Below, one piece after another: positions 1,763 through 54,951 of a stretch of 64,000 nucleotides of DNA. The notes beneath the pieces were generated by a model, which saw only the letters and a program-made list of their open reading frames with translations, did no database searches and was not told the DNA's origin. A program made the translations under genes and the position numbers. Within the stretch, counting starts at the first letter, position 1. Each line of letters begins with the position of its first letter. Source of the stretch: Gammaproteobacteria bacterium (GTDB lineage: Bacteria; Pseudomonadota; Gammaproteobacteria; CBDBNL01; JAAOII01). The DNA is taken from positions 736,001 through 800,000 of the forward strand of contig OZ242372.1 in NCBI GenBank assembly GCA_965209035.1, in the 5' to 3' direction.

Positions 1763-1856
1763 AATATACCCTATAATTATACCCTGTAAAAACTCTAAAA
1801 AACCCTTATAAATACAAGAGTTTTTAAAAATCTAAAAATTTCTTTCCGAAGTCAAG
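1..1856 (-). mobile_element. IS1634-family insertion sequence (left end and transposase; right end outside window)
   Basis: Transposase plus AT-rich leader. Probable terminus CTTGACTTCGGAAAG... at 1856 (minus strand), where the upstream gene's Asp-rich repeat stops abruptly. Confidence 0.75.
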
Positions 1857-2459
1857 ATCGTTATCATCATCCTCACCGTCACCGTCATCGTCCATATCTT
1901 CCGTCAAGGGCGATGTCGTGCAACCCGGAACAAGGCTATCCGGATTGCCGTCATTATCCGTGTCGGTACTGGCACAGGCATCTGTCCGGAACGCATCTGC
2001 GCCATTCACAGTATCATCATCGTCAATATCTGTGCCTACACCCGCTCCCGCTCCCGTTGTGCTTGACACAGGAGGTGAGGTCCCGATAGTGCGGCTCTTA
2101 TAACGCACCGCAATCGTGATGTGATAGGTGATGTCATTGGTTAAGCCCGTAATGTTGTAGATGACCCGAGCAAGCGGCGCAACATCCGCCACGGTAGAAT
2201 TAAGTTCTGTTGTGCCACCATCGCTCGCATTGTCACGGCGTGCGGTAATAACGAACCCCGTGATATTATCCGAAGCCGGATTGGTCCAACCCACGAGAAT
2301 ATAATCCTCACCGACCAGAGTCTGGATATTGGAAACAGCCGGGGAATTCTGAGCAGCGGGATCGCCACCACCACCGCTGCCGCCACCGCCACAACCTGTC
2401 AGAACCAAACCGAACATACCCGCCAGCAGCACACCGTAAAAACGAGCCGGTATGCGCAT
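1824..2459 (-). pseudogene. Lipoprotein with FN3-like domain and thrombospondin type-3-like (DxDxDG) repeats, 3'-truncated by the IS
   Basis: Lipobox VLTGC followed by GGGGSGGGG; W-x-x-P...YNITGLTNDITY (FN3); DIDDDD/DAF, DTDNDGNPD, DDDGDGEDD repeats. Last 10 aa (LDFGKKFLDF) are read from the IS end. Likely start 2459 (ORF extends to 2603). Confidence 0.7.
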
Positions 2460-2859
2460 CCGTCGCGCCCTATTGGGTTCGGGAAAATTCTTAAAGGCAT
2501 TAAAAGCATTAAAAGTATTAAAGAGACGCACAGATACCGTGCCTCTTTGTTCGCGGCGCATTGCTTTCACCGACCGCACAGGAAAAAAGTGTAACTGATT
2601 CATTATTTTCTATTGTTTATTATTGTTTTCTGTTATGATTAATGGGGATTAGATACTTTGTGACCCATAAAAAAGTAAGTGCCATTATTATTACATTAAA
2701 AAGGAGAGTTGAGGAGTAAAATATGAGCATAAATACTGGTAAATACAAGAAAAAAGAGGGTTATTTTCTGTTCGAGACTCGAGACCTTCAGAATGGAAGT
2801 TTTGGCAGATCCCCAGGCTGTTTGCAATGGATCTTGAGGCAAATGGCAAATTTTTTGAA

Positions 2860-3138: not shown

Positions 3139-3894
3139 ATGTTGGAACTAAAGAATTTGGAAGCCGGTTATGGTCGTATTAAGATCTTAAACAACATTAA
3201 TATGTCGATTCCCGGGGGCAGTATCGTGGCATTATTAGGCGGAAACGGGACTGGCAAATCCACCTTGCTAAAAACTATTTCCGGACTGCTAAAAATTCAA
3301 GGCGGGACAATGATATTCAACAACGAACGCATAGACAATTTGCGACCGGACAAAATTGTCAAGAAGGGATTGGTACAAGTCACTCAAGCAAAAGAAGCAT
3401 TCGTCAATATGACCGTAGAAGAAAACTTAAAGGTCGGCGCTTTTGTCAAATCATCGGCAAAGGATCTTGCCCGCAACTTGGAAATTGTTTACGGCTATTT
3501 TCCGGACTTGAAAAACAAACGGCGACAGTTGTCCGGCAGTTTATCCGGCGGCCAATTGCAAATGCTCTGCATCGGGCGCGGGTTGATGAGCGAGCCCAAG
3601 ATGCTGATGTTGGATGAGCCCAGTGCGGCATTGGCACCGCGCGTGGTCTTGGATATCTTTCGCATCATCAACCGAATTCGCAAAAGCGGAATGACTGTGT
3701 TATTGGTGGAGCAAAATGTTCGGATGGCGTTATTATTGTCCTCTTACGGATATGTCATTAAGGACGGCATGATCCATCTGGAGGGGGCTGCGGACAAACT
3801 CATCTCGGATGACAATTTACGATTGTCATACCTTGGCGGAGGCACGGTGACGCGCCATCAAGAAGATAGCCAGCCGGATCAAAACTCTCCATAA
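3139..3894 (+). CDS. livF: Branched-chain amino acid-type ABC transporter ATP-binding protein (LivF-like)
   Basis: Walker A GGNGTGKST, LSGGQLQML, LDEPS, LLVEQN. Confidence 0.9.
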   Translation: MLELKNLEAGYGRIKILNNINMSIPGGSIVALLGGNGTGKSTLLKTISGLLKIQGGTMIFNNERIDNLRPDKIVKKGLVQVTQAKEAFVNMTVEENLKVGAFVKSSAKDLARNLEIVYGYFPDLKNKRRQLSGSLSGGQLQMLCIGRGLMSEPKMLMLDEPSAALAPRVVLDIFRIINRIRKSGMTVLLVEQNVRMALLLSSYGYVIKDGMIHLEGAADKLISDDNLRLSYLGGGTVTRHQEDSQPDQNSP

Positions 3895-3917
3895 TCTCTT
3901 CATACAAACAAACAAAA

Positions 3918-4808
3918 ATGGAATTTTTTATTGATCTCTTGATTGTCGGCATATCCGTAGGGATGATCTACGCACTGGTCGCTTTGGGGATCTCTTTAAT
4001 TTATTCCGGCTTGGATATCGTTCATTTTGCCCACGGTGAAATATATATGTTCGGAGCTTTCTTTGGTTTGGTTGCATACAGAGATTTGACTTTCATCTAC
4101 CCTCTGGCGTTAGTGGCTGCCATGATCATAACCGCCCTGTTTGGAATGTTAGTTGAACGCTTGTTTTACAGACGTCTTACGCGCACCGGCGGCGGCTATA
4201 CGGTTGCCGGCATGGGAATGATCATCTGCGGCTTCGGCATGTCCGTGGTCCTCCAAAATATTGCTTATTTGATCTGGTCGCCCAAGACATTTCCTTTCTT
4301 TGTTGATTTTGGTCTGCCGATGGAAGTCGGCAATCTGATTTTACCGAAAAGTTACTTATGGATCCTTTTAATCTCCTTGGGCCTAATGGTCAGTCTGCAC
4401 CTTTTCTTAAAGTACACCAAATGGGGGCGCGCTATTCGGGCTGTTGCCAATAACAAGGATATTGCTTTTTTGATGGGGATCAATGTTCCCGTCACTATTT
4501 CTCTTATTTTTGGGTTGGCATGTGCTCTGGCGGCGGCGGCGGGTGTCTTGGTAGGACCGATCAATACCGTCCAGGTTCAAATGGGGTATCTTATTCTCAT
4601 TAAATCTTTTGCCGCCGCCGTAGTAGGCGGTTTTGGCAGCTTGCCGGGCGCTATTGTGGGCGGCTTAACCGTCGGTATTGCGGAAACACTTGGCGCCGGC
4701 TATATTTCCGGCAGCCATAAAGATATCTATGCATTCCTACTTCTAATTCTTGTCCTAATGTTTCGACCGGGCGGCTTTTTGGGGCAACACTTTAAATCCA
4801 AAGCATAA
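3918..4808 (+). CDS. livH: Liv-type ABC permease (LivH-like)
   Basis: G.IYALVALG.SLIY, FAHGE, T.WGRAIRAVA, GGFGSLPGA. Confidence 0.9.
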   Translation: MEFFIDLLIVGISVGMIYALVALGISLIYSGLDIVHFAHGEIYMFGAFFGLVAYRDLTFIYPLALVAAMIITALFGMLVERLFYRRLTRTGGGYTVAGMGMIICGFGMSVVLQNIAYLIWSPKTFPFFVDFGLPMEVGNLILPKSYLWILLISLGLMVSLHLFLKYTKWGRAIRAVANNKDIAFLMGINVPVTISLIFGLACALAAAAGVLVGPINTVQVQMGYLILIKSFAAAVVGGFGSLPGAIVGGLTVGIAETLGAGYISGSHKDIYAFLLLILVLMFRPGGFLGQHFKSKA

Positions 4809-4819
4809 AGGTTGCCCCG

Positions 4820-4842
4820 GCCGGTTTAACCGGTTTTTTCTA
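4820..4842 (+). terminator. Possible intrinsic terminator after livH
   Basis: CCGGTTTAACCGG hairpin followed by a T-run. Confidence 0.35.
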
Positions 4843-4908
4843 TCTTTTCTTTTCTTTTCTTTTAATAACTCCCTCCCCCCCCTTCTCTATCCCTATCCCT
4901 ATCCCCTA

Positions 4909-5712
4909 ATGTCATACAGAGACGAGTTAACAGGACAAACGGCACTCATCACCGGCGGTAGCAAGGGGATTGGCAAAGCAATCGCGGATATTTTATACAG
5001 AGACGGCGCGGACATTTTATTGGTTGCTTCCCAAGAACGGGGGTTACAAAAAGCAAGGGAAGAGCTCTTACAACATCATCCTCAAAAAGGCAACATAGAG
5101 ATCCTGGCAACGGACTTGCGTCGGGCGGATAATTGCCGCAGACTCTATGAGGATGTGATCGCAAAGAGTAACACAAAACCCGCAATCCTTATTAATTCGG
5201 CGGGTGCCACCCGCGGCGGGGATTTTTTGGAATTAACAGACGATGACTGGCAGGACGGCTTTGCCCTCAAGTTTTATGCTTGTGTGCGTCTCTGCCGTCT
5301 GTTTTGGCAAGATCTGGCCGCCAATAACGGGCGGGTCGTCAATATTGTCGGGGGGTTTGCCCGCACACCGCATCCGGATTTTATGATAGGAGGATCAGTC
5401 AATGCCGCCATGACAAACTTTAGTAAGTCCTTGGCCGCCCGCGGAATTCGCGACGGTGTCAGAGTGAATGTTGTACATCCGGGCTCTACGCAATCGGATC
5501 GGCTGCTCAATGTTTTGAGGGACATTGCATCCGCATCCGACAAGACACCGGAACAAGTTCAAGAAGAGCGGTTTAAAGAAGAGGGAGTCCGTCGATTAGG
5601 TCAGCCGGAAGATGTTGCAAATCTTGTCCGATTTCTTGTCAGCCGGGAAGCCGAACATATTCAAGGAATATCCGTCTCGGTGGACGGCGGTGCGACCAAG
5701 AGTATCTTTTAG
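4909..5712 (+). CDS. Short-chain dehydrogenase/reductase (SDR)
   Basis: TGGSKGIG, LINSAG, VNVVHPG, VDGG; lacks a canonical YxxxK (atypical subfamily). Confidence 0.85.
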   Translation: MSYRDELTGQTALITGGSKGIGKAIADILYRDGADILLVASQERGLQKAREELLQHHPQKGNIEILATDLRRADNCRRLYEDVIAKSNTKPAILINSAGATRGGDFLELTDDDWQDGFALKFYACVRLCRLFWQDLAANNGRVVNIVGGFARTPHPDFMIGGSVNAAMTNFSKSLAARGIRDGVRVNVVHPGSTQSDRLLNVLRDIASASDKTPEQVQEERFKEEGVRRLGQPEDVANLVRFLVSREAEHIQGISVSVDGGATKSIF

Positions 5713-5729
5713 AACCGACCCCGCCCCCC

Positions 5730-6620
5730 TTATTTTTTGGCGTTGTTCATCTTCCGTATTTTTTTCATCAGATCCACCTGTCTTTTCGCCCCGGCAAAAA
5801 TCGGATAATCCACAAAGTTGCCGCGCACCTTGATCGCGGCGATTCCCTGTTTTTCCGCTTTACGAAACTCTCTCACAATCGCAAGAGACAAATCATATTC
5901 TTCGGCGGAAGGAGAAAAGCCGGCATTAATGTCGGGTAACTGGCAGGGATGAATACAGGCCTTTCCTTGAAAACCGATTTTACGCGCGACGGCGGCTGAT
6001 CGTCGCAGACCTTCGGTGTCCTCTAAAATCGGGTAGGATGTATCAATCGGGGCTTCCAAACCATGCGCCCGAGCGGCCGTTACCAACTGATGGCGTGCCG
6101 TAACAATTGCCTCTTCGGACGCATCCCAGATTCTGTCCGTATCCGCACAAAAGTCCCAAGAACCAAAAGAAAGTTTTTTTATTCTGCCGGCGGCCGCGCA
6201 AATTGCATTCAAGGCAATGAACCCCTTCGCTGTTTCAATCACCGGGATAATCTCGGTCCCGGTACGGGAGTACTCGCGTTCCAAAGCGTTGACAAGCCAA
6301 TTCAATATGTGGCAGTCCGCCGCGGTTTCAATTTTTGGGACAATAAACCCTTTAATGAACCCTTTAATCTCCGCCCGCATTAATTGACACATATCGCCAT
6401 AGGTTCTGTCAGCCGCCAAAGTATTCAAGCGGACATAAAAGCGGCGCGTCGGATTTTTGGCAACTCGGATGATTGTCTTTAAAGCCCTGTCCTTCTCGCC
6501 GGGCGGTACCGCGTCTTCAAGGTCAACCGCCACCTGGTCCGCATCGCTCAGCAAGGCCTTACGCATCTTCGCCTCCTCGTGGCCCGGCGCAAAGAGGACG
6601 CTACGAAAGAGTTCAGTCAT
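5730..6620 (-). CDS. CitE/malyl-CoA lyase-like (HpcH/HpaI) CoA-ester lyase
   Basis: RSVLFAPG, DLEDAVP, VRLN, PKIE, IETAKG, GFQGKACIHPCQ. Confidence 0.85.
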   Translation of the reverse strand: MTELFRSVLFAPGHEEAKMRKALLSDADQVAVDLEDAVPPGEKDRALKTIIRVAKNPTRRFYVRLNTLAADRTYGDMCQLMRAEIKGFIKGFIVPKIETAADCHILNWLVNALEREYSRTGTEIIPVIETAKGFIALNAICAAAGRIKKLSFGSWDFCADTDRIWDASEEAIVTARHQLVTAARAHGLEAPIDTSYPILEDTEGLRRSAAVARKIGFQGKACIHPCQLPDINAGFSPSAEEYDLSLAIVREFRKAEKQGIAAIKVRGNFVDYPIFAGAKRQVDLMKKIRKMNNAKK

Positions 6621-7788
6621 TCTCGGAGGCAGTACAGTCTTTGATCAGGTAGTCTTTAATGACCTCTTCGTCCGGGTCCGCTCCCAATCCGGGCAAGTCA
6701 CTCGGCTGATAAAACCCTTCTGTCGGTGCAATCAATCCGTTAAACAGATCCGCTTCCGGTTCAATAAAAAATCTCTCCACCATCGGCGGGTGTTTCTCGG
6801 CGGCACACAAATGAATCGTTGCCAATAAGCCGGGGCCAAAATAAGCGGAATGTGGCGCGAGATGAACAGCCCGATGTTGCCGCACCAACCGGGCAATCTT
6901 AACAAACTCGGTAATACCGCCGACCTTGGTGACACTCGGTTGAACAAAATCAACGGCACCGCAACCAAGAAGTTGCCGAAAGGCATGCAAAGTACTTGCA
7001 TTCTCTCCGGCCGCTATCGCAACAGGCTTCCCGGTTTGTCTTCCGACTTGTCTTCCGGTTTGTCTTAATGCCGCCAAAGATTCGTAATCATCCGGCGGAA
7101 AGATGGGTTCTTCCAACCACATGAGATCATAGGGTTGAAAGCGAGAGACGGCAGTACGCGCCTCCGGCAAACTCCAACAACAGTTAACATCGGTTGCCAA
7201 CGGAATATCGTCGCCAATTTCTTTGCGCGCCGCCTCTATTTCCCTCTCGTTATTCTCGTGGAGTTTAATCGCCTTGTAACCCAACTCCAAGGCACGCCGA
7301 CAGTTTGCCCGCACCGTCTCCGAGTCTCCGTACTTAAACAAACTGGCATAGGCGGTCAACTTCGGGACGGGGACGGTGACACTCCGCGCACCCTCATGCT
7401 CCGTTTCGCACAAAAGAGCGAACAAAGGTTTGCCCGCAAGTTTTCCTTTCAGATCCCAAAGAGCGATGTCCGCACCCGCAAGAGCAAACATCCCGATACC
7501 GGAATGCCCGTATGTATGCATTTGTTGTCGCACGCTGTGCATCAGATCGTCGATCTTGTCGACTGACTTTCCCACCAAAAGAGGAACAAACATATCACGC
7601 AACGCAAACACCACGGCTCTCCAACAAGAGTAACCGAAAGATTCCCCCCAGCCTACCGCCCCCTCGTCTGTCTCAATTCTTACCAAGACCACACAAATAC
7701 TCTTCCAATCCGCCCCCTTGAAGCCGCCGGCACCGAGAGTATCCACAGGCAATCGCAAGGGAAAAATTTGAATGTCTTTAATAATCAT
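6613..7788 (-). CDS. Mandelate racemase/muconate lactonizing (enolase superfamily) enzyme
   Basis: G.VGWGE, DIALWDLKGK..GKPL..LL; metal ligands D(VN), (L)EEP, (G)EN; APH. Confidence 0.88.
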   Translation of the reverse strand: MIIKDIQIFPLRLPVDTLGAGGFKGADWKSICVVLVRIETDEGAVGWGESFGYSCWRAVVFALRDMFVPLLVGKSVDKIDDLMHSVRQQMHTYGHSGIGMFALAGADIALWDLKGKLAGKPLFALLCETEHEGARSVTVPVPKLTAYASLFKYGDSETVRANCRRALELGYKAIKLHENNEREIEAARKEIGDDIPLATDVNCCWSLPEARTAVSRFQPYDLMWLEEPIFPPDDYESLAALRQTGRQVGRQTGKPVAIAAGENASTLHAFRQLLGCGAVDFVQPSVTKVGGITEFVKIARLVRQHRAVHLAPHSAYFGPGLLATIHLCAAEKHPPMVERFFIEPEADLFNGLIAPTEGFYQPSDLPGLGADPDEEVIKDYLIKDCTASEND

Positions 7789-7849
7789 CCATGATCATCC
7801 ATAATCATCCCGGTATGGCACCCCAGTCCATTTGAACTAGCTGTTTCCA

Positions 7850-8662
7850 TTATAGATTCTTGCGGAATCTGCGAAAATTGGGCTTGCGTTTTTCCAAGAA
7901 CGCCTTGGCGCCTTCTTCCTGCTCCCCCGTTGCAAAGTAACCCGGTGCAATTTGCCGGACCATCTCGTCTTGCCGCAAAGACAAAACGGATGCCATCTGA
8001 TGTCTAAAAGTTTCTTTAAGAATTTTTAAACAAGTGGGCGATAAAGACAACATATCCGCGGCCCATGCGGACACCTCCGCGTCCAGATCCTCATAAGGAA
8101 CGACCGCGTTAACCAGCCCCCAATCCAGCATTTTTGCCGCCGAATATCGGCGGCATGTCAGCCACATTTCTCTGGCGCGCTTGTGTCCCAGAATATTTGC
8201 CAAATGGGCGACAGTGGCACCCGCCGCCGGCGAACCCACCCTCGGCCCGTTTTGGCCAAAGACCGCGTGCTCGGCTGCGATGGTCAAGTCACAATAGTAT
8301 GCCATGTGGTTTCCCCCGCCGATGGCGTAACCATTGACACGTGCAATCACCGGTTTGGGACACTCCGTCAAATGCCGGTGTAATTCATACTCATGCTTCT
8401 TAAATTCTTTCGTTGCCTCCCAATTGACATCGCCACCGGAACAAAAGGCGCGTTCCCCGGCCCCCGTAAGAACAATGACGCCAACTTGCGGGTCTTCGGC
8501 TGCAATTTTTAAAGCACTTTGAATTTCATTCAAAGTAACGGGAGTAAACGCATTAAGAACCTGCGGGCGATTAATGGTGATGCGAGCAACTTCATCTCGC
8601 ACCTCATAAATAATATCCTTAAACGAAGCCACTTTTAATACCGCGTTTAATGCCACTTTCAA
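7850..8662 (-). CDS. Crotonase-family enzyme, MenB/BadI-like
   Basis: ITINRP, AFCSGGD, KPVIARVNGYAIGGG, FGQNGPRVGS, KRAREMW, EG.KAFLEKRKP.F. Confidence 0.8.
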   Translation of the reverse strand: MKVALNAVLKVASFKDIIYEVRDEVARITINRPQVLNAFTPVTLNEIQSALKIAAEDPQVGVIVLTGAGERAFCSGGDVNWEATKEFKKHEYELHRHLTECPKPVIARVNGYAIGGGNHMAYYCDLTIAAEHAVFGQNGPRVGSPAAGATVAHLANILGHKRAREMWLTCRRYSAAKMLDWGLVNAVVPYEDLDAEVSAWAADMLSLSPTCLKILKETFRHQMASVLSLRQDEMVRQIAPGYFATGEQEEGAKAFLEKRKPNFRRFRKNL

Positions 8663-8677
8663 TATTCTTCAATGTTT

Positions 8678-10705
8678 TCAATGCGTCTTAGCCGACAACC
8701 GTTGAAACAGATACTCTTTTTGTAAACTGCGAACCGCCGCCGGATTCATCACAGACGACACATCCTTTATTTCTTCTCCCATCAAAGCCGACCTTATGGT
8801 TTTACGCATAATTTTCATCGTTCGCGTTTTGGGAAGATCCGCCACTTGCAAGATATGCTTGGGGCAAAAAGAACGCCCCAGATCCTTTGTGATTCTACGG
8901 GTTAAAAGCTCTTCAAGTTCCGCGGCCGAAACATCTTCTTGCCCTTCGGTATCCTTCGGGACATACAAACACAAAATCATATTCCCGGTGTGCTCATCCG
9001 GCAGCCCTATAGCCGCGCATTCCAACACGCGCCCGCTGTGCATCATAGAATTCTCAATTTCAGCCGGGCCGACCCGCTTACCGGAAATCTTGATCACATC
9101 ATCGGACCTCCCGTGAATGAACCAAAAGCCATCCTCGTCACGGGAAACAAGATCGCCGTGCGCCCAATAACCCGGTATTTTATTCCAATAATTTTCCAAG
9201 TAGCCTTTCGGATTCTTCCACAACCCGGCGGTTAACCCGACAGACGAGTGCGTCATGACCAGCTCGCCGATCTCTCCCGTTGCAACCGGACTCCCGTCCG
9301 AGTGTCGAATTTCCGCCCCCATACCGGGTATGGCAATAGAAAAGCCGCCGCGTTTTAGCGGGTGATGCAGGTCGCACAAAAGTATGGAGCCGCTGACTTC
9401 GGTACCGCCGGCCGAATTGAGAATAGGCACCCGCCCTCCGCAAAGATCAAACAACCTGTTCCAGGCGGTTTCGGTCCAGGGTTCGCCGCCGCTAACGATG
9501 ATACGCAAACTGCTCAGATCGTATTTGTCCGGCTCGGCTGCCGGATAACGCATCATATTGCGTATCAAAGCGGGACTCAGTTCAACCCAACTGGCGCGAT
9601 AATCTTGAATCAGCCGCCAAAATCTTCCGTGCTGCGGATAGTCCGGCAAGCCCTCCGCCAGGATCATACTGCCGCCGTTAACCGCCGCAATGGTAGCGGA
9701 CTTAGAGCCGACCATCCATCCCATATCCGCCATGCAAAAATGCCGGTCTCGGGAACGAAAATCCGTTAAGATACCGTGATCAAACAGCATCTTGGTCACA
9801 AGTCCTATGTGCGTATAAACACAGCCTTTCGGACTGCCGGTCGTCCCGGATGTGTAGTGAATGACTGCGGGGGCCATGGCATCCATCGGGACTGTGGCGG
9901 TATTCTTATCTCCGCGAGAAAGAAGTTCTCCCCATTCTATGCTGTTATTCTTATTCTTATTCTTATTCTTATTCTTCCCCGCAATGTCGCGGGTCTCTTC
10001 ACAAGCATCTCCGCGAGCCTCTCCGGAAGTATCAACATAAATGAGAGACTTTAAGTCGGTAAGATCACGCCGGGCTTCTTCCAGCAACTTCTTCATAGGT
10101 ATTTTTTTACCCCGCCGCCAAGCATGTGTCACCGTTACAACCGCCTTCGCATTGGCCGGCCTTAACCGGTCCGCGCAAGCCCGAGGTCCGAAGCCGGAAA
10201 AAAGCGGCATCACTATGGCACCTATTTTTGCTATGCCGTAATACGCGATATAGGTTTCCGCCACATTGGGCATATACAACGCAACCACATCCCCCTGCTT
10301 AATGCCAAGTTCCAACAAGCCGCCGGCAAACTTGCACACCTCCGCATCAAACTGCGCGTAGGTTAGGGTTTTTCTGTCGCCGTTTTCACGCTCTTCAAAA
10401 ATGAAAGTCTTGTGATAGATATCGGATTGGCGATATCTGTCAAGACAGTTCAAAACAAGGTTTGTTTTTCCGCCGACACACCATTGCGTCCAAGGTTTGC
10501 CGCGAGAATCGTCCATGATCTTCGCGTAAGGTTGATAAAACTTCAGATCCCCAAAACGGATCACCGCATCCCACAACCATCCCGGATCCTGCCGAGCCCG
10601 GTCTTCCATCTCTTCAAAAGAATGCAATCCCTCGGCTTTCAAAAACTCACTTTGCCCGGAAGAAGCGATCAGTGCCTCGGAGGGCGACCAGGCATAAGCC
10701 GACAT
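8678..10705 (-). CDS. Acetyl-CoA synthetase-like acyl-CoA ligase
   Basis: YTSGTTGSPKG, GGTE, HGD, GRSDDVIKISGKR, LPKTRTMKIMR; contains a (KN)n insert. Confidence 0.9.
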   Translation of the reverse strand: MSAYAWSPSEALIASSGQSEFLKAEGLHSFEEMEDRARQDPGWLWDAVIRFGDLKFYQPYAKIMDDSRGKPWTQWCVGGKTNLVLNCLDRYRQSDIYHKTFIFEERENGDRKTLTYAQFDAEVCKFAGGLLELGIKQGDVVALYMPNVAETYIAYYGIAKIGAIVMPLFSGFGPRACADRLRPANAKAVVTVTHAWRRGKKIPMKKLLEEARRDLTDLKSLIYVDTSGEARGDACEETRDIAGKNKNKNKNKNNSIEWGELLSRGDKNTATVPMDAMAPAVIHYTSGTTGSPKGCVYTHIGLVTKMLFDHGILTDFRSRDRHFCMADMGWMVGSKSATIAAVNGGSMILAEGLPDYPQHGRFWRLIQDYRASWVELSPALIRNMMRYPAAEPDKYDLSSLRIIVSGGEPWTETAWNRLFDLCGGRVPILNSAGGTEVSGSILLCDLHHPLKRGGFSIAIPGMGAEIRHSDGSPVATGEIGELVMTHSSVGLTAGLWKNPKGYLENYWNKIPGYWAHGDLVSRDEDGFWFIHGRSDDVIKISGKRVGPAEIENSMMHSGRVLECAAIGLPDEHTGNMILCLYVPKDTEGQEDVSAAELEELLTRRITKDLGRSFCPKHILQVADLPKTRTMKIMRKTIRSALMGEEIKDVSSVMNPAAVRSLQKEYLFQRLSAKTH

Positions 10706-10706
10706 T

Positions 10707-11741
10707 TTATTTGTCCTTCGCTTTCTTATCGTTAATCATTTTGCCGCGCAAAGAAGGGGCAACATAAATATTATTAATTCTGTGAACACCTCCCGCCGGA
10801 TAAAAGACCCCCTCATAATGTGCTTCCTCCGGAGTGATATCATAATGATAATGTCCGCCTTGTTGTTTATCTTCCATGTGATAAAAGTGGGTATGCTCGT
10901 GCGAAGGTCGCAGATGCAACCTACCGCCCGTTGGATCGCCGCTCCAAAGGACACTGAAGTTGACAAGATTCGGACCCATCGTCTCATAAAACTGCAGAAA
11001 GTCCCGAAACACTTCATCTTTTTCCTCGTCATAATATTGATGCGCGATGCATTCAAAGTTCGGCATGATATGCGAACGCACCTTGCCCCCCTTCATTTCA
11101 AACACACCGCCCATACCCAATTGCTCACCCTTACCTCTCTCGCGACACAGGTTCACCAACCCCTTGCGAATGTTTAGAGGAAAAGAGCCACTCTTGCCAA
11201 TTCGCTTTTTGACTTTAATATGCATCACATCGCCGGGATTGCCTTCACAAAGAAAGAAGTTTGCCAAGCCACCGTGCAAATAAGAATCATAAGGTTCCAG
11301 AACCGCCCGCTCATCCTCGCCGACGCGCGCCGCTTTGGAACGATTGACGGCATCGCCCAAATGCGCGGAGGCTATTAATTCGCCGCAATTCCCGCCAAGG
11401 ACATCCCGGTGGGCGATGCCCGCACCCAGAATATGACCGCCCGGCAAGCCGCAGGCTGCCGCCAGTCCATCCATATGAAAGCAAATATCCCGGTATGCGG
11501 TATGATGCGCATAGGGCTCACCGCCCAACTCTATGAGTCGTGCGGAACCGCATAATCCGGCAGACGCCGAACCCAAATCGGACAGATCCGGACAGGGTGC
11601 GATTCCCACATCCACAAACGCGTAATCCTCGCGCAGACTCTGTTCCACGGCTGCCGCGAGCATCTCCAACGGCAGCAATGCAAAATCAGCGGAATCCGCC
11701 CACAAGGTCGGATTCTTTAAGGTCCCCTCTTCAACCCGCAT
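10707..11741 (-). CDS. DUF1907 / C11orf54 (PTD012)-like Zn-dependent enzyme
   Basis: CPDL, G.CG..RL.ELGG.PY, ILGAG, ANFFLCEGNPG.V, LGMGGVF, HIMP.F, EHTHF...GGHYHYDITP....YEG.F (three-His Zn site). Likely start 11741, overlapping the panE-like stop. Confidence 0.82.
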   Translation of the reverse strand: MRVEEGTLKNPTLWADSADFALLPLEMLAAAVEQSLREDYAFVDVGIAPCPDLSDLGSASAGLCGSARLIELGGEPYAHHTAYRDICFHMDGLAAACGLPGGHILGAGIAHRDVLGGNCGELIASAHLGDAVNRSKAARVGEDERAVLEPYDSYLHGGLANFFLCEGNPGDVMHIKVKKRIGKSGSFPLNIRKGLVNLCRERGKGEQLGMGGVFEMKGGKVRSHIMPNFECIAHQYYDEEKDEVFRDFLQFYETMGPNLVNFSVLWSGDPTGGRLHLRPSHEHTHFYHMEDKQQGGHYHYDITPEEAHYEGVFYPAGGVHRINNIYVAPSLRGKMINDKKAKDK

Positions 11742-12696
11742 CGGTGTACTTGCTTTCCAATGCCTTAACATAAGCGGTCAGGATATCGTTGACCGGGGTC
11801 GGGATGCCGTGCTTTCGCCCCAGTTTTGCAACCATACCGTTGATGTAATCAATCTCTGTCGGTCTGGAATTGAGAATATCCACACACAGGCTGGACTTGT
11901 TCCCCGGGGTGCCGCCGTGAGGATCGGTGATTTGGTTGAATACCTTAACAGATTCTTCGCGACCAAACTCAAGTCCCTCGGCTGCGGCAACACGCACTGC
12001 TTCTTCTATGGCGGCATAGGACACTTTTCTAAGCGAAGGATCTTCGCTTAATTTTTTTAAAGCAACATCCAAAATACCGCTCGGCGCGCTGACCCCTATG
12101 TTCGCAAAAAGTTTTGCCCAGATGCTGCGACGAATATCGGCAACCGCCTGCGTGGGTAACCCGTTTTGGCTGAGAAAATCCGCAATCTTTTGACTCCTTT
12201 CAGACAGATCACCGGACAGATCATCGGACATCTCGCCGATATAAGTAGGTAACTCGGCATGATTACGAACACAACCCGGGCCTTCCATATTCGCTCCTTG
12301 CGCGGTCAAGCCACCCAGGACGCGATCAGTCCCAAGATGTTCGGCAATCTTCTCTTCGTTACCCAAACCGTTTTGAAAACTAATGGCTATTGTTTGTGTC
12401 TCGGCGGAAAAAAGATATCGCACCGAATCTGCGGCCGCATCGTTGTAAATCGCCTTGCATTGAAAAAATACCAGATCCGTCTCACCAATCTCCTTTGCAT
12501 CCGTGAGTGCGCGCAGTTTGATCATTCTGTCACCGCCGTGACCTATCATTTTGAGACCATCGCGCCTAACGGCATCCATATGCTCTTGCCAAGGATCGAG
12601 TAAAGTGACATCCGCCCCTCCTTCCGCCAATAGGCCGCCAAACAAAGAGCCCATGGCACCGGCACCCGCAATTGTGATTTTTAGTTTGTTCGTCAT
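11731..12696 (-). CDS. 2-dehydropantoate 2-reductase (PanE/ApbA) family 2-ketoacid reductase
   Basis: GAGAMGSLFG, FQNGLG, W.KL..N, SSL..D...RPTEIDYING. Confidence 0.85.
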   Translation of the reverse strand: MTNKLKITIAGAGAMGSLFGGLLAEGGADVTLLDPWQEHMDAVRRDGLKMIGHGGDRMIKLRALTDAKEIGETDLVFFQCKAIYNDAAADSVRYLFSAETQTIAISFQNGLGNEEKIAEHLGTDRVLGGLTAQGANMEGPGCVRNHAELPTYIGEMSDDLSGDLSERSQKIADFLSQNGLPTQAVADIRRSIWAKLFANIGVSAPSGILDVALKKLSEDPSLRKVSYAAIEEAVRVAAAEGLEFGREESVKVFNQITDPHGGTPGNKSSLCVDILNSRPTEIDYINGMVAKLGRKHGIPTPVNDILTAYVKALESKYTDAG

Positions 12697-12746
12697 AATA
12701 AGTAGTAAGTAGTATTAATAAATAAATCTTTAAGGCACTCGCAGCA

Positions 12747-13565
12747 TTAATGCAAGATAACCGAGATATGAGCGGAACCTTTTTCGGTGGAAAAATAAGC
12801 GGCCGCCAGATCACCCGATGTCACCGGCACCGGCTGCGTCAGAGAGCCTGTCAAAATTAAATCGTCTTTCTTAAGAGGCAACCCGCATGCCTTGGCATGA
12901 CAAAAAATCCACTGTAACGGCGGCATCAAATAATCTGCAACCGACATTTGATTTTTGGCATCGGCAACCGGTCTTCCGTTTAGAATCAGCCGGACTTCCC
13001 AAAAATTTGCATCATCCGGAACAACCGGAACAACAGACAGCGGTTCGGAATCCAAAACAACAAACCCGCCGTTACCGTTGTCCGCCAACTGTGCCAGCAT
13101 CCGTTCGCGGGCGCTCGCCCTGTTCATCCAGTCCGCGGCATAGCGACCGGCGGTAATATCAAAAGATAAAAAGATGTCCGCCAACTCACCGAGTTCCAAG
13201 GAAGTTGGCGAGCCCTCGCAGCCCCAATCCGCGGGTGTTTCTTTCAGACGCACCGCCAATTCACATTCAATCTTGGGTTGGCTCTTTGCCGACAGAGAGA
13301 CACAGGAGCCGCTTTCAAAAACATAATCGGCAAGCAGACGACCGGGAATTGGACCGTCATAACCTTCCGCTTTTTGAACTTCCGGTGAAAGTGCGCCAAG
13401 TTTCCAACCACAAGTGGACAACCCAAGCCGTTGAATGACCGCGTCGCGGACCCGATAAGCATCCTCGCGATGACGCGGCAACATCTGCGGCGATGGCGAC
13501 AAGGCGGCCCTATGCGGATTACGAGCCGCGACCAGAGCGACGGTTAAACTCGACGGAGCGGACAC
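12747..13565 (-). CDS. 2-keto-4-pentenoate hydratase (MhpD)/FAA-hydrolase family protein
   Basis: GWKLG, PIPGRL, IECELAV, LADNG, D.ILTGS. Confidence 0.75.
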   Translation of the reverse strand: MSAPSSLTVALVAARNPHRAALSPSPQMLPRHREDAYRVRDAVIQRLGLSTCGWKLGALSPEVQKAEGYDGPIPGRLLADYVFESGSCVSLSAKSQPKIECELAVRLKETPADWGCEGSPTSLELGELADIFLSFDITAGRYAADWMNRASARERMLAQLADNGNGGFVVLDSEPLSVVPVVPDDANFWEVRLILNGRPVADAKNQMSVADYLMPPLQWIFCHAKACGLPLKKDDLILTGSLTQPVPVTSGDLAAAYFSTEKGSAHISVILH

Positions 13566-13666
13566 AAAGCAATCTTTGCGAAGATTGGAGATATCGGTTC
13601 CGGCAATTATGTTGGGCGTGGCGGGCGAGGTGAATATGGCGGGCGCGGTAAATATGACGGCGACGA

Positions 13667-14470
13667 TTAGGTGGCAAAAAACTCGCGCACCTTGTCATCC
13701 TCCATTTCCTGTCCCAGGTAGGCTTCAACCACCCCGTGATCGTTCTTTATTTCCTCGGGACTCCCCTCGGCTATTTTGACGCCATAATCCAAAACAGTGA
13801 CAATGCGACAAGTGTTCATAATCACCTTGAGTATATGCTCCACCAAGATTAAAGTAATATCCATGGCCTTATTCATACGCCGAATAATTTCCATGATATT
13901 ATCCACATTGGCGGGACTCAACCCCGCACCCGGCTCATCCAGCATGAGAAGTTTGGGTTTCATCGCCATCGCGCGCGCCATAGAAATTAATCTTCGCTGA
14001 CCGATGGAAGTTTCACTCGCCGGCATGTCGGCAAAATCCGCCATACCGACAAAATCCAAAAGATCCTTCATTTCTTTTTTTACCCGCTGCTCGGTCTTGC
14101 GAGAGGCGGGGGAGTTAAGCATCAGATCCCAAAAGTTTCTTTTAATATGGCAGTGATGCCCCACCAACACATTTTCAAGAACACTCATCTCCGGCCAAAT
14201 CCGCAACATCTGAAACGAACGAGCCAGCCCCCGTCTCGCAATTTGATGCGGCGGCATACCGGCGATTTTTTCTCCGCAAAATTCAATCTTACCGGAATCC
14301 GGTTTATAGATACCGGATACCACATTAAACAAAGTACTCTTGCCGGAGCCGTTCGGACCAATCACACCGTGAATGTCATGCTCCTTTACCGAAAAACTCA
14401 CATCGTTCAATGCCACAAGACCGCCAAAACTTTTGTTAAGGCGATCAATAACGAGAATGTCCGTCTTCAA
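13667..14470 (-). CDS. livG: Liv-type ABC ATP-binding protein (LivG-like)
   Basis: FGGL.AL, GPNGSGKST, ARSFQ, LDEP.AG, VEH, V.EAYLG. Confidence 0.9.
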   Translation of the reverse strand: MKTDILVIDRLNKSFGGLVALNDVSFSVKEHDIHGVIGPNGSGKSTLFNVVSGIYKPDSGKIEFCGEKIAGMPPHQIARRGLARSFQMLRIWPEMSVLENVLVGHHCHIKRNFWDLMLNSPASRKTEQRVKKEMKDLLDFVGMADFADMPASETSIGQRRLISMARAMAMKPKLLMLDEPGAGLSPANVDNIMEIIRRMNKAMDITLILVEHILKVIMNTCRIVTVLDYGVKIAEGSPEEIKNDHGVVEAYLGQEMEDDKVREFFAT

Positions 14471-15453
14471 GCCCGGGCGCGGTCTCGCTGGGCCGCGATG
14501 AATTTTCGGCGACTCGTATATCGCGTGATGAAGCCGCCAATGCCTTTTGGCATAAACAAAACAGTAAAGACAATGCCGAGACCGAATATGAGCAATTGAT
14601 ATTGATAATACTCGCGAGTGAGATCATAAAAAATTGTAATGATGATCGCGCCGATAATGCCGCCCCATATATTGCCGACACCGCCCAAAATCACCATCAA
14701 CAACAGAGTGACCATTTCTATGATTGTGAAGTTATTCGGATGAATATAGCCCGGCTCCAAATGCGCATACAAACTTCCGGCCGCCCCCGCATAAAAGGCG
14801 CTGATTAAAAATGCCAGTGACTTGTATGTGCGCACAGGGATGCCGGACGTTGCCGCCGCCAAGGAGTCATCTCTGACGGCCTTAAAGCCGCGTCCGAGAG
14901 ACGAGTTTAAAATATTAAAAGAAAAATAGATGCCCATCAAGGTAATCGGCATTAACAAAAAATAATACTTGTTCGGTGTGTCAAGATGAAAACCGAATAA
15001 GTTGGGTGCCGGGATGTTACCAATACCAAGTGTTGTCCCGAAGTAGTCAGTCACCGATATCAAAATTCGCACAGTTTCGGCAAAACCGAGAGTGGCAAGC
15101 GCCAAGTAGGCCCCTTCCAACTTGAAGGAAGGAACGGCGACCAAAAGCCCGACAGCGCCCGTAATAGCGATCGCGGACAAAAAAGCGAGAAAAAACGGAA
15201 AATCAAAATTAATGGAAAGAATGGCGGAACTGTATGCTCCGATGGCATACAAGGCAATATGTCCGACCGTAACCTGCCCCGCAAAACCCTTGACCACATT
15301 CAGCCCGACCGCCAGCAAGATATTAATCATCACAATACAGATCAAATGATCCACATAAAGATTGGGAGTGATTAATGGCACCGGCAGCAAAAGAGCCAAC
15401 GCAACCAGCCAGCCATAGCGCGGATTAATCTTATTAAAAAAAGAAAACTGCAT
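14467..15453 (-). CDS. livM: Liv-type ABC permease (LivM-like)
   Basis: GLN...G.AGQ...GH, G.YLALATL.FAE, GR.F.AVRD, ILGG.G, PKG. Confidence 0.9.
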   Translation of the reverse strand: MQFSFFNKINPRYGWLVALALLLPVPLITPNLYVDHLICIVMINILLAVGLNVVKGFAGQVTVGHIALYAIGAYSSAILSINFDFPFFLAFLSAIAITGAVGLLVAVPSFKLEGAYLALATLGFAETVRILISVTDYFGTTLGIGNIPAPNLFGFHLDTPNKYYFLLMPITLMGIYFSFNILNSSLGRGFKAVRDDSLAAATSGIPVRTYKSLAFLISAFYAGAAGSLYAHLEPGYIHPNNFTIIEMVTLLLMVILGGVGNIWGGIIGAIIITIFYDLTREYYQYQLLIFGLGIVFTVLFMPKGIGGFITRYTSRRKFIAAQRDRARA

Positions 15454-15517
15454 TACTCGTTTTTTGTTACGATTGCGGTTATTTCCGTATCTCTCTTAAT
15501 TAAAAGCGGACACAAAA

Positions 15518-15563
15518 ACAGAAACACCTCCCAAGCACGAATGCGGCGGAGGTGTTTTCTGTG
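15518..15563 (-). terminator. Stem-loop between substrate-binding gene and permease
   Basis: Arms ACAGAAA(A)CACCTCC / GGAGGTGTTTCTGT followed by a T-run on the minus strand; the usual position of a SBP mRNA-stabilising or attenuating hairpin. Confidence 0.6.
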
Positions 15564-15579
15564 AACTTACAAACTGATC

Positions 15580-16776
15580 TTATAAACCAAAATCAGCATC
15601 AAATGTTATAGTATCCAGCACTCTGGTTTGAAAGTTTTTACCGCCTTGGGTATACTCAATCAAAACAGGTGTCCTGTTACCGTCTCGACACTGCGGAGTG
15701 GGTGCCCGACAAAAACTGATAGGACCCGAAGCCAGACCCTGATAGTTCTTTATGTTTGCCAAAGCATCGCGCAAAGCCGCTCTGTCCGCAGCCAGCGTCG
15801 CCGGCTGATTCTTAATATCGGCATTCTCCAATGCAATCTTCATAATTTGCACCATATCCCACGCCTGAGAAAAGTCATGATCGGGCGAAGTGCCATAACG
15901 CTCATTGACCGTCTTGGTAAACTTTTTCGCAATAGGACGCTCGTCGGCATGCGAAAAGGCAGCCGCATAGAAAACGCCCTTAACCGCCTTGCCCGCCAAG
16001 ATAGGAACATCCTGCTTGGACGCCACCGAAGGAGCGACTCTTTTCACCTTTTTGGAAATACCCACTTCATAGGACTGGATAAGCATTCGGGCAACATCGT
16101 CCTGCAGACCGGAAAGAATTAACGCATCCGGTTTGGCCGCCTTGGCCTTAAGAAGAACCGAACGATAGTCCACTTCTTTTTCTTGCACCTGCGCTTCGTA
16201 CACCGGATCCACATTGTATTTTTCTTTCATATAGGCAATGGTATCTTTGGACTGCTTCAAACCGGCGGCATCGGTCGCGTAAATATAAGCAATTTTCTTG
16301 CCCACATTGTTGGCGACATATTCCGCCTGAACCGCATTATAAAAGCGGCCGGAAACAGGAACACGAAATATCCAATCGCTTCCTTTCATCGTGATGCCCG
16401 GATTAGTGGAATGCGGCGTAATCTGCGGCACCCCGGCTTTTGCGGTTACATCCACTATGGGAAGAGTGACCGAACTGCAACTTGAACCTATCACAGCAAG
16501 AACCTTGTGTTGATAGATCAACTTGTTCGCGTTGGCGACTCCTTTTTCGGACTTGCATTCGTCATTGAGAAAAACGAGTTCTATGTCGCGACCGTTAATA
16601 CCGCCCGCATCATTGATTGCTTTAAACTCATCTTCGATCATTTGACCGATTTTGAAGCCCGCATCGCTAATCATCCTAATGGTCACACCAAGTTTCAAAG
16701 TATCCGCGGATACGGAAACAGAGGCGGTCGCCAAAAAGGCAATTAACAAGACATATAATAATTTAATTGATTTCAT
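15580..16776 (-). CDS. Liv-type ABC substrate-binding protein
   Basis: Signal peptide; IN.AGGINGR.IEL, V.AVIG...S, WIFR. Confidence 0.88.
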   Translation of the reverse strand: MKSIKLLYVLLIAFLATASVSVSADTLKLGVTIRMISDAGFKIGQMIEDEFKAINDAGGINGRDIELVFLNDECKSEKGVANANKLIYQHKVLAVIGSSCSSVTLPIVDVTAKAGVPQITPHSTNPGITMKGSDWIFRVPVSGRFYNAVQAEYVANNVGKKIAYIYATDAAGLKQSKDTIAYMKEKYNVDPVYEAQVQEKEVDYRSVLLKAKAAKPDALILSGLQDDVARMLIQSYEVGISKKVKRVAPSVASKQDVPILAGKAVKGVFYAAAFSHADERPIAKKFTKTVNERYGTSPDHDFSQAWDMVQIMKIALENADIKNQPATLAADRAALRDALANIKNYQGLASGPISFCRAPTPQCRDGNRTPVLIEYTQGGKNFQTRVLDTITFDADFGL

Positions 16777-26200: not shown

Positions 26201-26656
26201 CTATTGTATCCGCTTGTCTTGCTCTGTCCCGGAGTCGGCAATCCCGGCAAGGATTTCTTTGGGTAAGAGGCGGGGACATAACTTTTGGGTATTAACACAT
26301 ACCACCTGAACTTGCGCTCGGCACAATAAGGCCTTGTCATGCACCCGACTAATGTCCTGGATAAAGGTTATCGCACACTTGCTTTTTTGCGCGGCATCCG
26401 CCCGCACCCGAAGAATGTCATCCAAGTAAGCGGGGGCAAGATATCTAATTTGCACTTGTCGCACTACAAACAAAATATTTCGCAGCCGCATGCTCTTTTT
26501 GTCCATGCCGATCCTGCGAATGAACTCGGTGCGCGCCCGCTCCATGAACTTAAGATAATTGGCGTAGTAAACAACACCGCCGGCATCCGTATCTTCCATG
26601 TAAACGCGCTGATGAAATGGCGAAAGAGCTGAGTGATTAACGCCGTGTATGGCCAT
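26201..26656 (-). CDS. ybgC: Tol-pal-associated acyl-CoA thioesterase
   Basis: RVY.EDTDAGGVVYYANYLKFMERARTE. Confidence 0.93.
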   Translation of the reverse strand: MAIHGVNHSALSPFHQRVYMEDTDAGGVVYYANYLKFMERARTEFIRRIGMDKKSMRLRNILFVVRQVQIRYLAPAYLDDILRVRADAAQKSKCAITFIQDISRVHDKALLCRAQVQVVCVNTQKLCPRLLPKEILAGIADSGTEQDKRIQ

Positions 26657-51723: not shown

Positions 51724-52391
51724 ATTTGCTCGGCGATTGATCGCGGATCTTTTGCAAACGCGAGACCTTCAAACAAAACAATGCCGTCCGGCCGAAGCGG
51801 GCGCAATGACCGAAGATTCCGTGCATTGATACCGCCTATACAAAATATAGGCACGGCACTTCGTTTGCGTACTTCGGCTATCACCCGCCTTGCTCCCACA
51901 ACACCCAAAATTGGCAGGCCCGGTTTTGTGCGGCTGGGAAACATACAACCGAGAGAAACATAATCCAATTCCGCATACGGGGCCATTTGGGCATGCAATT
52001 CGGAATGCAAAGTCTGGCCGATTACGGCGGAACTTCCGAGCAGTCGTCGCGCCCTGCCGACCGGCATATCGGTTTGTCCCAGATGGACACCGTCCGCTTG
52101 GATCTTCCGACAAAGAGCAACATCGTCATTAATAAGAAACAGGGCTGCGCGCCTGGCACAGATTTTTTTTAATTCCAAAAGAACCTCCGTATCTTCGGCA
52201 GTTTCGGCAGGCTCGTCCGCCACAGCGCGCCATTGAACAATTCCGACACCTCCCGCCAGAACCGAAGGAACCAAAGATGCCAAATCATCGCGAGACGCGC
52301 GAGACGCATTCGCCAAAAAGTAAATGCACGGTATCTTATCCTTTAAGGAAGACTGCTTAGGGAACATATCCCCCGCCCATTTGCCGAACAT
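51699..52391 (-). CDS. thiE: Thiamine-phosphate synthase
   Basis: INDD, ADGVHLGQTD, FP..TK, IGGI. Confidence 0.88.
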   Translation of the reverse strand: MFGKWAGDMFPKQSSLKDKIPCIYFLANASRASRDDLASLVPSVLAGGVGIVQWRAVADEPAETAEDTEVLLELKKICARRAALFLINDDVALCRKIQADGVHLGQTDMPVGRARRLLGSSAVIGQTLHSELHAQMAPYAELDYVSLGCMFPSRTKPGLPILGVVGARRVIAEVRKRSAVPIFCIGGINARNLRSLRPLRPDGIVLFEGLAFAKDPRSIAEQMCEELRSW

Positions 52392-53307: not shown

Positions 53308-53324
53308 GACCGGCGATGATTCTT

Positions 53325-54944: not shown

Positions 54945-54951
54945 AAAAGCC

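Follow-up and report, generated by a model that had tools for sequence, protein, structure and literature searches.

A possible oxidative decarboxylation unit of PanE-like and DUF1907 proteins joined to a coenzyme A module in a gammaproteobacterial gene cluster

We analyzed a 64,000-nucleotide stretch of a Gammaproteobacteria bacterium genome (assembly GCA_965209035.1, contig OZ242372.1, positions 736,001 to 800,000 of the forward strand; hereafter the window), in which 13 intact open reading frames (ORFs) at 3139–16776 form a cluster around a member of the DUF1907/C11orf54 family. The cluster appears to consist of two conserved modules, joined to each other and to lineage-specific accessory genes. 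Module 1 pairs the DUF1907 protein with a PanE-like dehydrogenase, and module 2 comprises an acyl-CoA ligase, a crotonase, and a short-chain dehydrogenase/reductase (SDR). The reading that we favor, tentatively and at a little under an even chance, is that these genes carry out oxidative decarboxylation plus coenzyme A (CoA)-dependent ring opening. The first-pass annotation of this DNA had proposed a catabolic cluster for an organic acid, and our findings support that view.

Several lines of evidence suggest what the DUF1907 protein (10707–11741, minus strand) does. The first-pass annotation named it only by its family, C11orf54/DUF1907, whose function is now known: human C11orf54 is a Zn-dependent β-keto-L-gulonate decarboxylase (BKGD) with a three-histidine Zn site, in which H217 and R263 are essential and the terminal D315 aids efficiency without being essential, and it is related to acetolactate decarboxylase (PMC12337341). 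Because the family is one of β-keto-acid decarboxylases, a C–C cleavage step can be assigned. The window protein scores 185 bits against PF08925 (cut-off 25; E 2e-54) and matches 1XCR by sequence at E 5e-40. Its structural model (pLDDT 92.7) retrieves 1XCR with Foldseek at E 1e-29 and superposes on it with Z 42.9 and a root-mean-square deviation of 1.7 Å over 294 aligned residues; acetolactate decarboxylases are the next-best structural matches (Z 14–15, best 15.2). Human H266, H268, H278, and H217 align with window H283, H285, H297, and H224, and H224, R278, E282, H283, H285, and H297 are invariant across 31 aligned bacterial proteins. The same holds in a GTDB scan, which detects only sequences with one of two peptide patterns and in which 93 stretches matched and 78 were confirmed, giving 77 loci (best identity about 52%), all from metagenome-assembled genomes (MAGs). 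R278, E282, H283, and H285, which lie outside the scan patterns, are present in 77 of 77 loci; H297 (77 of 77) and H224 (76 of 77, one not covered) are part of those patterns. Relative to the human enzyme there is a bacteria-specific insertion near residues 231–247, and the C-terminus is a lysine-rich tail. Decarboxylation of a 2-hydroxy-3-oxo acid is thus predicted for this protein, and we consider that prediction very likely to be right. No paper on the function of a bacterial DUF1907 protein was found in the open-access literature. The main text of the C11orf54 study contains none of the terms "bacteri", "prokaryot", or "horizontal" (PMC12337341), and a commentary says of prokaryotes only that the protein is "found in some bacteria".

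The partner gene (11731–12696, minus strand) encodes a PanE/ApbA-family dehydrogenase that scores 234 bits against the TIGR00745 subfamily model (cut-off 141) and is the sole enzyme of the cluster to reach an NCBIfam cut-off. It does not qualify as ketopantoate reductase proper, all PRK06522 models being below cut-off. D34, K81, N109, K195, N199, S269, and E281 are found in 32 of 32 aligned rows, and the place of Asn184, in the E. coli enzyme a ligand of the substrate's carboxylate (PMC10127515), is occupied by serine in 29 of 32; roles of the remaining residues follow PMC3478992. The invariant Asp34 sits where NAD would be selected, so the enzyme is probably NAD-type, and serine in place of Asn184 weakly fits a shifted reaction site.

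The two genes of module 1 belong together well beyond the window. We tabulated the neighborhoods of 76 GTDB loci (L077, a 50-residue fragment, was dropped), calling orthologs at an identity of at least 40%. A PanE ortholog, 49–57% identical to the window protein, is present in 34 of the 76, which span Gamma- and Alphaproteobacteria, Spirochaetota, and Chloroflexota. The pair is co-directional in 33 of these 34 loci and lies within 315 bp in 32, two being split by transposases, and either gene can come first, the arrangement being spread over several DUF1907 clades. Distances among the DUF1907 proteins track those among their PanE partners (rho 0.72 over 30 pairs, 0 of 2000 permutations), a value inflated by kinship. 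That the two proteins act in sequence is, in our judgment, likely.

The pair often lies in an inositol context. Genes for myo-inositol catabolism (iol) occur at 17 of the 34 PanE loci, and iolG/E/D/B/C orthologs at 22 of the 42 loci outside a Caldilineaceae group described below; of the six reference proteins, five (those for iolG, iolE, iolD, and iolC and one of the pair for iolB) pass NCBIfam cut-offs. A TRAP carboxylate transporter is found at 20 of the 34 PanE loci, frequently in the order TRAP-panE-DUF1907-iolG, and relatives of the pair are accompanied by phytase at 9 loci and by an RpiR-type regulator at 10. Pfam and NCBIfam covered 275 of 363 heuristically called neighbor families (the other 88 being short, very long, or ambiguous), and among those covered there is no pentulose kinase, class II aldolase/epimerase, or CRYL1-type domain; the sole FGGY kinase is GlpK, a glycerol kinase, in L056.

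These neighborhoods hold further features. A 637-residue protein in inositol/phytase clusters (L033, 4170–6083, minus strand) has a Tat-like signal and no NCBIfam match at E 1e-10, and we presume that it resembles PhoX phosphatases. Fatty-acid-hydroxylase/desaturase-type membrane genes lie near DUF1907 or panE in 6 of the 76 loci (L027, L044, L072, L074, L040, and L061) and could, we assume, encode methyl-group oxidases like rhizopine MocD. We set aside the demethylation of methyl-inositols, an idea drawn from these 6 loci and for which no literature support was found. The ligand of the L054 TRAP protein could not be deduced from solved structures (best match 119 bits). The Caldilineaceae loci L002–L030 and their relatives have no PanE; there the DUF1907 gene is flanked by one for an ADP-ribosylglycohydrolase and one for a galactonate-dehydratase-like mandelate racemase (MR)-subgroup enzyme, and many of these loci carry, further upstream, another MR together with a GFO oxidoreductase and PhyH. 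The Caldilineaceae MR beside DUF1907 was rejected as an ortholog of the MR of the window, identity being only about 30%. Neither PanE nor MR is present at 8 of the 76 loci, several of which are cut by contig ends.

Bacterial members of the family appear to be rare. A protein search returned 39 matches, namely 36 bacterial-like sequences (43–97% identity), one snail protein, and two distant sequences left unused, and a plasmid search gave no DUF1907 match. In the Atlas, queried with a homolog of low recognition, three large clusters were displayed as 100% eukaryotic. Carriers in our data are Caldilineaceae, marine Gamma- and Alphaproteobacteria, and Spirochaetota, and those outside the Caldilineae are presumably animal-associated. 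Caldilineae are described as sponge symbionts that use inositol and uronate (PMC6306507). Our DUF1907 tree was built by a quick method with SH-aLRT support only, with the Caldilineaceae-MR loci thinned to 8 of 34 and a single distant animal sequence, and it is therefore silent on the direction of any transfer.

Module 2 is defined by a second association. The ligase (8678–10705, minus strand; PF16177/PF00501/PF13193) is AcsA-like and falls below the cut-offs for AcsA (431 of 725 bits), acetoacetate-CoA ligase (331 of 639), and PrpE (332 of 955). It has glycines where acetyl-CoA synthetases carry a pocket-closing tryptophan, and its pocket is probably enlarged; the pocket motifs are shared with a Ca. 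Pelagibacter protein at 51% identity. The crotonase (7850–8662, minus strand; its true start may lie a few codons downstream of 8662) has MenB (278 of 380 and 258 of 343 bits) and BadI TIGR03210 (256 of 468) as best models, all below cut-off. MenB and BadI form a cluster of Dieckmann-type reactions (PMC13689101). The window protein reads GSPAAG at the GSFDGG site of MenB, with Ala146 in 120 of 121 aligned rows, and W81, E82, H119, Y122, S144, and P145 are each kept in 120–121 of 121; it is a probable β-ketoacyl-CoA (retro-Claisen) hydrolase. The SDR (4909–5712, plus strand) is atypical: it reads IGGSVNA where YxxxK is expected, and the L047 and L081 proteins are equivalent at this site. Its closest solved relative is 6JH7 (E 5e-37), which is AerF, an alkenal double-bond reductase (PMC13256417), and it is a probable C=C (enone/enoyl) reductase.

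Fourteen of the 21 top ligase matches, one of them a near-identical relative of the window and one from Pseudochelatococcus sp. B33, appear by an indirect measure, equal length of the longest contig, to share a contig with a crotonase match, against 0 of the next 99, and four of the 14 also pair, by the same measure, with a DUF1907 match. We regard it as highly probable that ligase and crotonase act in sequence. The DUF1907 proteins P0005, P0007, and P0009, which pair indirectly with both ligase and crotonase, group with the window protein with support 98. The two modules meet again in L047, a Caldilineaceae (Chloroflexota) MAG, as a single-strand run of SDR-ligase-crotonase-4HBT thioesterase-DUF1907-panE; identities to the window are 48% (SDR), 53% (ligase), 67–69% (crotonase), 44% (DUF1907), and 49% (PanE), and the thioesterase has no window counterpart. 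Since the L047 DUF1907 falls in a different clade from that of the window, the joining of modules 1 and 2 requires two changes on the quick tree. On balance it seems probable, if less so than either pairing, that the two modules serve one pathway. The co-occurrence of homologs in other genomes, which the first-pass annotation had named as its test, is borne out for these five genes in L047 and, one livF match aside, fails for the accessory genes.

Some sequences around module 2 stand apart from this argument. About 100 AT-rich ligase relatives (P0176–P0279) are 49–52% identical to the window ligase and have the same pocket motifs where examined, and the window ligase carries a KN-repeat insertion that the L047 ortholog lacks. 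A Leisingera sp. M527 plasmid (L078, 4942–25030) places an Asp-less crotonase with a Mo-hydroxylase, VOC, FAH, two quinone oxidoreductases, TRAP, an acetoacetate-CoA-ligase-like protein, a distant MhpD-like protein, a transhydrogenase, and a thioesterase, and it provides a cultured host of the crotonase family.

We propose the following scheme. Module 1 would be a two-gene oxidative decarboxylation unit, in which the NAD-type PanE-like dehydrogenase converts a 2,3-dihydroxy acid to an unstable 2-hydroxy-3-oxo acid, and the Zn enzyme DUF1907 chelates this intermediate and releases CO2, leaving an α-ketol. This would be the chemistry of animal CRYL1 and C11orf54 with a PanE-family enzyme replacing CRYL1, and we regard these two steps as well constrained. 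In module 2, the ligase would turn a bulky acid into its CoA ester, the SDR would reduce a ring C=C bond, and the crotonase would open the cyclic β-ketoacyl-CoA by retro-Claisen hydrolysis, with a thioesterase joining them in L047. Where iol genes follow the pair, a decarboxylated ketocyclitol may enter inositol catabolism; in the window the ring would be opened instead, and the enolase-family dehydratase, the FAH-like protein, and the CitE-like lyase may finish the open chain. Known PanE enzymes act at C2, and three kinds of substrate would reconcile this with the scheme: a 2,3-dihydroxy acid oxidized at C3, which would be new for PanE; diketogulonate as a 2,3-diketo acid, with reduction at C2; and a tartrate-like diacid. 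We favor a carbocyclic acid because in many relatives the pair is immediately followed by iol genes, because no pentose-using genes were seen among the neighbor families covered, and because ligase, crotonase, and SDR each independently point to a ring. A polyhydroxy carbocyclic (cyclitol-type) carboxylate is possible as the substrate on these grounds, though clearly short of an even chance.

A number of observations weigh against this scheme. Most of the loci with iol genes belong to Gammaproteobacteria that are related to one another (three changes on the tree), and the window cluster itself has no iol gene. In 34 of the 76 loci, all from the single lineage Caldilineaceae, DUF1907 is accompanied by the galactonate-dehydratase-like MR and by no PanE or iol ortholog. 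Characterized PanE proteins act at C2 of 2-oxo or 2-hydroxy acids, and oxidation at C3 would therefore be new for the family. In the DUF1907 protein, the arginine lies five residues before the first Zn histidine rather than three as in the human enzyme (a two-residue insertion), and the human C-terminal Asp315 is missing, a conserved terminal Asp being found in 0 of the 31 aligned bacterial proteins. Module 2 adjoins DUF1907 in only one of the 76 GTDB loci (L047), and only 4 of 36 bacterial DUF1907 matches pair, by the indirect measure, with ligase or crotonase matches. On the Leisingera plasmid the crotonase (68% identity) is found with a different ligase and without DUF1907, so parts of module 2 are reused in other settings. 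Lacking the Asp of MenB, the crotonase could be a decarboxylase or a hydratase. The window MR, CitE-like protein, MhpD-like protein, solute-binding protein (SBP), livH, livM, and livG have no ortholog in the 76 neighborhoods. Finally, no catabolic paper on carboxylated or methylated inositols was found among the open-access papers listed.

Among the alternatives, salvage of a host hexonate would have the PanE-like enzyme oxidize L-gulonate at C3, or reduce 2,3-diketo-L-gulonate (oxidized ascorbate) at C2, with DUF1907 yielding L-xylulose. We take this to be a nonphosphorylating analog of the E. coli YiaK/YiaMNO/LyxK/SgbH route. It relies on the proven C11orf54 reaction, its diketogulonate version is canonical PanE chemistry, and TRAP transporters adjoin 20 of the 34 pairs. 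The animal pathway, moreover, has myo-inositol as its starting point, and a sponge possesses all of it (PMC12337341), and inositol and uronate use by the sponge Caldilineae (PMC6306507, as above) would suit it. However, the covered neighbor families contain no pentulose kinase, class II aldolase/epimerase, or CRYL1-type 3HCDH, which could lie elsewhere in the genomes; the 2R alcohol made by E. coli PanE (PMC10127515) conflicts with the L (S) center that the human substrate should have; and module 2 is left unexplained. We consider this salvage route rather unlikely.

We give the same weight to a patchwork of independent units (panE-DUF1907; ligase-crotonase-SDR; MR-CitE; MhpD-like; ABC) that share one locus of a streamlined genome and form no single pathway. 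Every module is found without the others, the accessory genes do not recur beside DUF1907 (one livF match aside), and the units are convergent with an IS1634 element nearby. Yet the window and L047, which differ in DUF1907 clade and in gene order, both combine module 1 with module 2, the window SDR on the opposite strand has its ortholog at the head of the L047 run, and 1-bp and overlapping junctions span module borders.

A tartrate-type substrate seems doubtful to us. Here the PanE-like enzyme would oxidize one D-configured carbon of meso- or L-tartrate, or of a similar 2,3-dihydroxy diacid, and DUF1907 would give hydroxypyruvate, to be reduced to glycerate. Numbered from one end, the product of the oxidation would be a 2-oxo acid, and numbered from the other, a 2-hydroxy-3-oxo acid, so that both enzymes would keep their canonical regiochemistry. 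The closest solved PanE relative is 3WFI, which we take to be an NAD-dependent D-2-hydroxyacid dehydrogenase, and D-2-hydroxyacid dehydrogenases flank L027, L044, L046/L057, and L061; the MR, FAH, and CitE families, furthermore, all contain C4-diacid enzymes. Against this, the inositol context of 22 loci is unexplained, as are the large-pocket ligase, the ring-opening crotonase, and the C=C reductase, and 2-hydroxyacid dehydrogenases are common enough to be chance neighbors. Finally, it is very improbable that DUF1907 is an esterase or lactonase, as an older family annotation has it, and that PanE and the ligase act after it has opened a lactone or ester: the human protein does hydrolyze p-nitrophenyl acetate weakly (PMC12337341, PMC12435205), and the shifted arginine loop and the insertion near 231–247 alter the pocket, but the decarboxylation histidine and an arginine in that loop are kept and the fold is that of acetolactate decarboxylase.

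If oxidative decarboxylation and CoA-dependent ring opening are indeed combined, the accessory genes could complete the pathway, and from their position we give their membership an even chance. Plus-strand genes, reading rightward, are livF (LivF-type ABC ATPase, 3139–3894; PF00005, best NCBIfam LivF model 215 bits, under its cut-off of 441), livH (LivH-type permease, 3918–4808; PF02653), and the SDR. Ten minus-strand genes read leftward: the HAAT/Liv-family SBP (15580–16776; PF13458), livM (LivM-type permease, 14467–15453; PF02653), livG (LivG-type ABC ATPase, 13667–14470; PF00005 and PF12399), a divergent MhpD/HpaH-like FAH-superfamily protein (12747–13565), the PanE-like gene, DUF1907, ligase, crotonase, the MR (6613–7788; PF13378/PF02746), and a CitE/malyl-CoA-lyase-family acyl-CoA C–C lyase (5730–6620; PF03328). 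The MR, a probable acid-sugar dehydratase, has the metal-ligand motifs DVN, EEP, and GEN, with KxH where KxK is usual, and does not reach the equivalog cut-off of any named enolase-superfamily dehydratase (best 145 of 500 bits). The CitE-like protein attains only family level (PF03328), with CitE at 147 of 443, citramalyl-CoA lyase (RipC) at 139 of 375, and malyl-CoA lyase at 58 of 500 bits. The MhpD-like protein has the ExE, KLG, DN, and TGS motifs, no match to any Pfam family (FAA_hydrolase included), and 44–59 bits against MhpD/HpaH equivalogs with cut-offs of 350–409 (best HpaH, E 5e-16, 59 of 351). Of the families listed by the first-pass annotation, the other assignments match ours and the MhpD-like one is weakly supported. 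Accessory motifs mostly look intact. The SBP ligand could not be deduced from structures, the best PDB match having only 84 bits. In the plasmid search the SBP had no match at E 1e-25, and matches to the ligase (at most 39%), PanE (37%), MR (42%), SDR (43%), and MhpD-like protein (about 30%) had gene surroundings that, in the cases examined, were unrelated or told us nothing. One livF ortholog lies beside DUF1907 (45%, L052); with seven genes having no ortholog in the 76 loci and livF in one, the earlier picture of 13 genes forming one conserved pathway cannot be maintained.

The tight couplings and 13 genes of the first-pass annotation were confirmed, with families assigned by Pfam and NCBIfam scans. 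The two units are convergent and meet at a 17-bp gap (5713–5729), so that the five ABC subunits are divided 2+3 between them. DUF1907 and ligase are 1 bp apart and ligase and crotonase 15 bp; MR/CitE overlap by 8 bp and livM/livG by 4 bp. The panE/DUF1907 overlap is 11 bp with the DUF1907 start at 11741 and 41 bp for the longest ORF (to 11771); we favor 11741 because it fits the 344-residue length of a 97%-identical relative (P0001). Compared with 22 housekeeping genes, the 13 genes do not differ in GC3 (p=0.21) or codon usage (p=0.14), and no tRNA, Rfam match, or flanking repeat was found; with composition normal and these signs missing, the term island has no support. On the left, the cluster has an IS1634 transposase at a distance of 1.4 kb, and def-fmt-rsmB follow on the right. 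Scans of the 13 genes and of other window proteins revealed no regulator, in line with the earlier description. Scans gave 22 promoter sites against 16.5±4.6 expected and 28 terminators against 18.5±4.7; with a 10/12 promoter-like site upstream of livF and none upstream of SBP, they are unusable as evidence.

Most of the 13 genes lack an obvious Shine-Dalgarno sequence, and short tandem repeats precede the SDR and panE starts. The IS1634-family transposase (2–1762, minus strand) scores above its NCBIfam cut-off and runs off the window edge. Between it and the cluster, a fibronectin type III lipoprotein-like ORF with Asp-rich repeats (1824–2603, minus strand) stops abruptly 61 bp from the insertion sequence and may be a truncated surface protein. 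Elsewhere in the window, all on the minus strand, a subtilase with a proprotein-convertase P domain (26637–28427) is inserted between ruvB and tolQ; ribosomal protein S16 (38265–39104) has an acidic tail of about 200 residues in repeated blocks; two adjacent genes (47277–50860) fuse Rieske domains to a glutamate-synthase-like flavin mononucleotide domain and to a thiamine diphosphate enzyme; and a glycosyltransferase cluster near gmd/fcl (52357–56755) holds a pair of GT2 genes that are nearly duplicates, along with a DXD-GT/GT2 fusion.

The function of C11orf54 dates only from 2025 and comes from eukaryote data. The neighborhoods described here give bacterial members a fixed PanE-like partner, a screenable transporter, and an inositol context, which makes the reaction directly testable, and they may lead to a compound that marine animals and their bacteria exchange. 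Ligase and crotonase make up a module in its own right, mislabeled in databases as acetyl-CoA synthetase and BadI/naphthoate synthase. In the most far-reaching version, uncultured marine and largely animal-associated bacteria would share C11orf54 with animals, possibly through cross-domain transfer; the first β-hydroxyl-oxidizing PanE would act on a carboxylated cyclitol unrecognized as a marine metabolite; and one branch would feed iol, while in the other, that of the window, ring opening would fall to a new class of crotonases without the Asp and to a ligase with close relatives abundant in SAR11-like sequences. We offer this as speculation and think it unlikely as a whole. Should the substrate be gulonate or tartrate, the cluster would amount to a known route rebuilt from non-orthologous enzymes, a useful and less surprising finding.

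Like the first-pass annotation, we could match the gene combination to no named pathway: neither for it nor for the panE-DUF1907 pair did we find a described pathway in the open-access literature. What is new is the pairing, the bacterial setting, and perhaps the substrate, whereas every enzyme's superfamily and chemistry is known. The myo-inositol iol pathway is linked to the pair through the iol genes that surround it in 17 of 34 related loci; to our knowledge, the known iol pathway includes no decarboxylation before ring cleavage and no PanE. Module 2 recalls the BadI/AliA cyclohexanecarboxylate pathway and MenB in that a MenB/BadI-cluster crotonase adjoins an acyl-CoA ligase and an SDR. 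Unlike BadI and MenB, the crotonase misses both equivalog cut-offs and has Ala at the MenB Asp site, neither an acyl-CoA dehydrogenase nor men genes occur in the window cluster, and the SDR, without YxxxK, is therefore not BadH-like.

Bacterial 3-oxo-sugar-acid routes (L-threonate Ltn3D/OtnK/OtnC and apionate ApnO) likewise make a 3-oxo acid that is then decarboxylated; they use SDR or ketol-acid reductoisomerase-like oxidases, with a kinase before the decarboxylase in the Ltn3D route, and, by their abstracts, no DUF1907 or PanE (PMC12994016, PMC13753588). α-Acetolactate decarboxylase (4BT2) has the same fold (Z 15.2 over 207 residues) and presumably the same reaction type, but identity is 11%, the window cluster has no acetolactate synthase, and the window protein appears to carry the BKGD-type His/Arg pair where acetolactate decarboxylase has Arg/Glu (PMC12337341). 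The animal pentose (glucuronate-xylulose) pathway of CRYL1 and C11orf54/BKGD (PMC12337341) differs in its 3HCDH partner, which is PanE/ApbA here, in the joining to a CoA module, and in that no L-xylulose-using genes lie nearby among the 275 of 363 neighbor families covered. With that pathway, nevertheless, the window system shares the decarboxylase family, the fold, the metal site, an NAD-type dehydrogenase partner, and, around many of its relatives, inositol metabolism.

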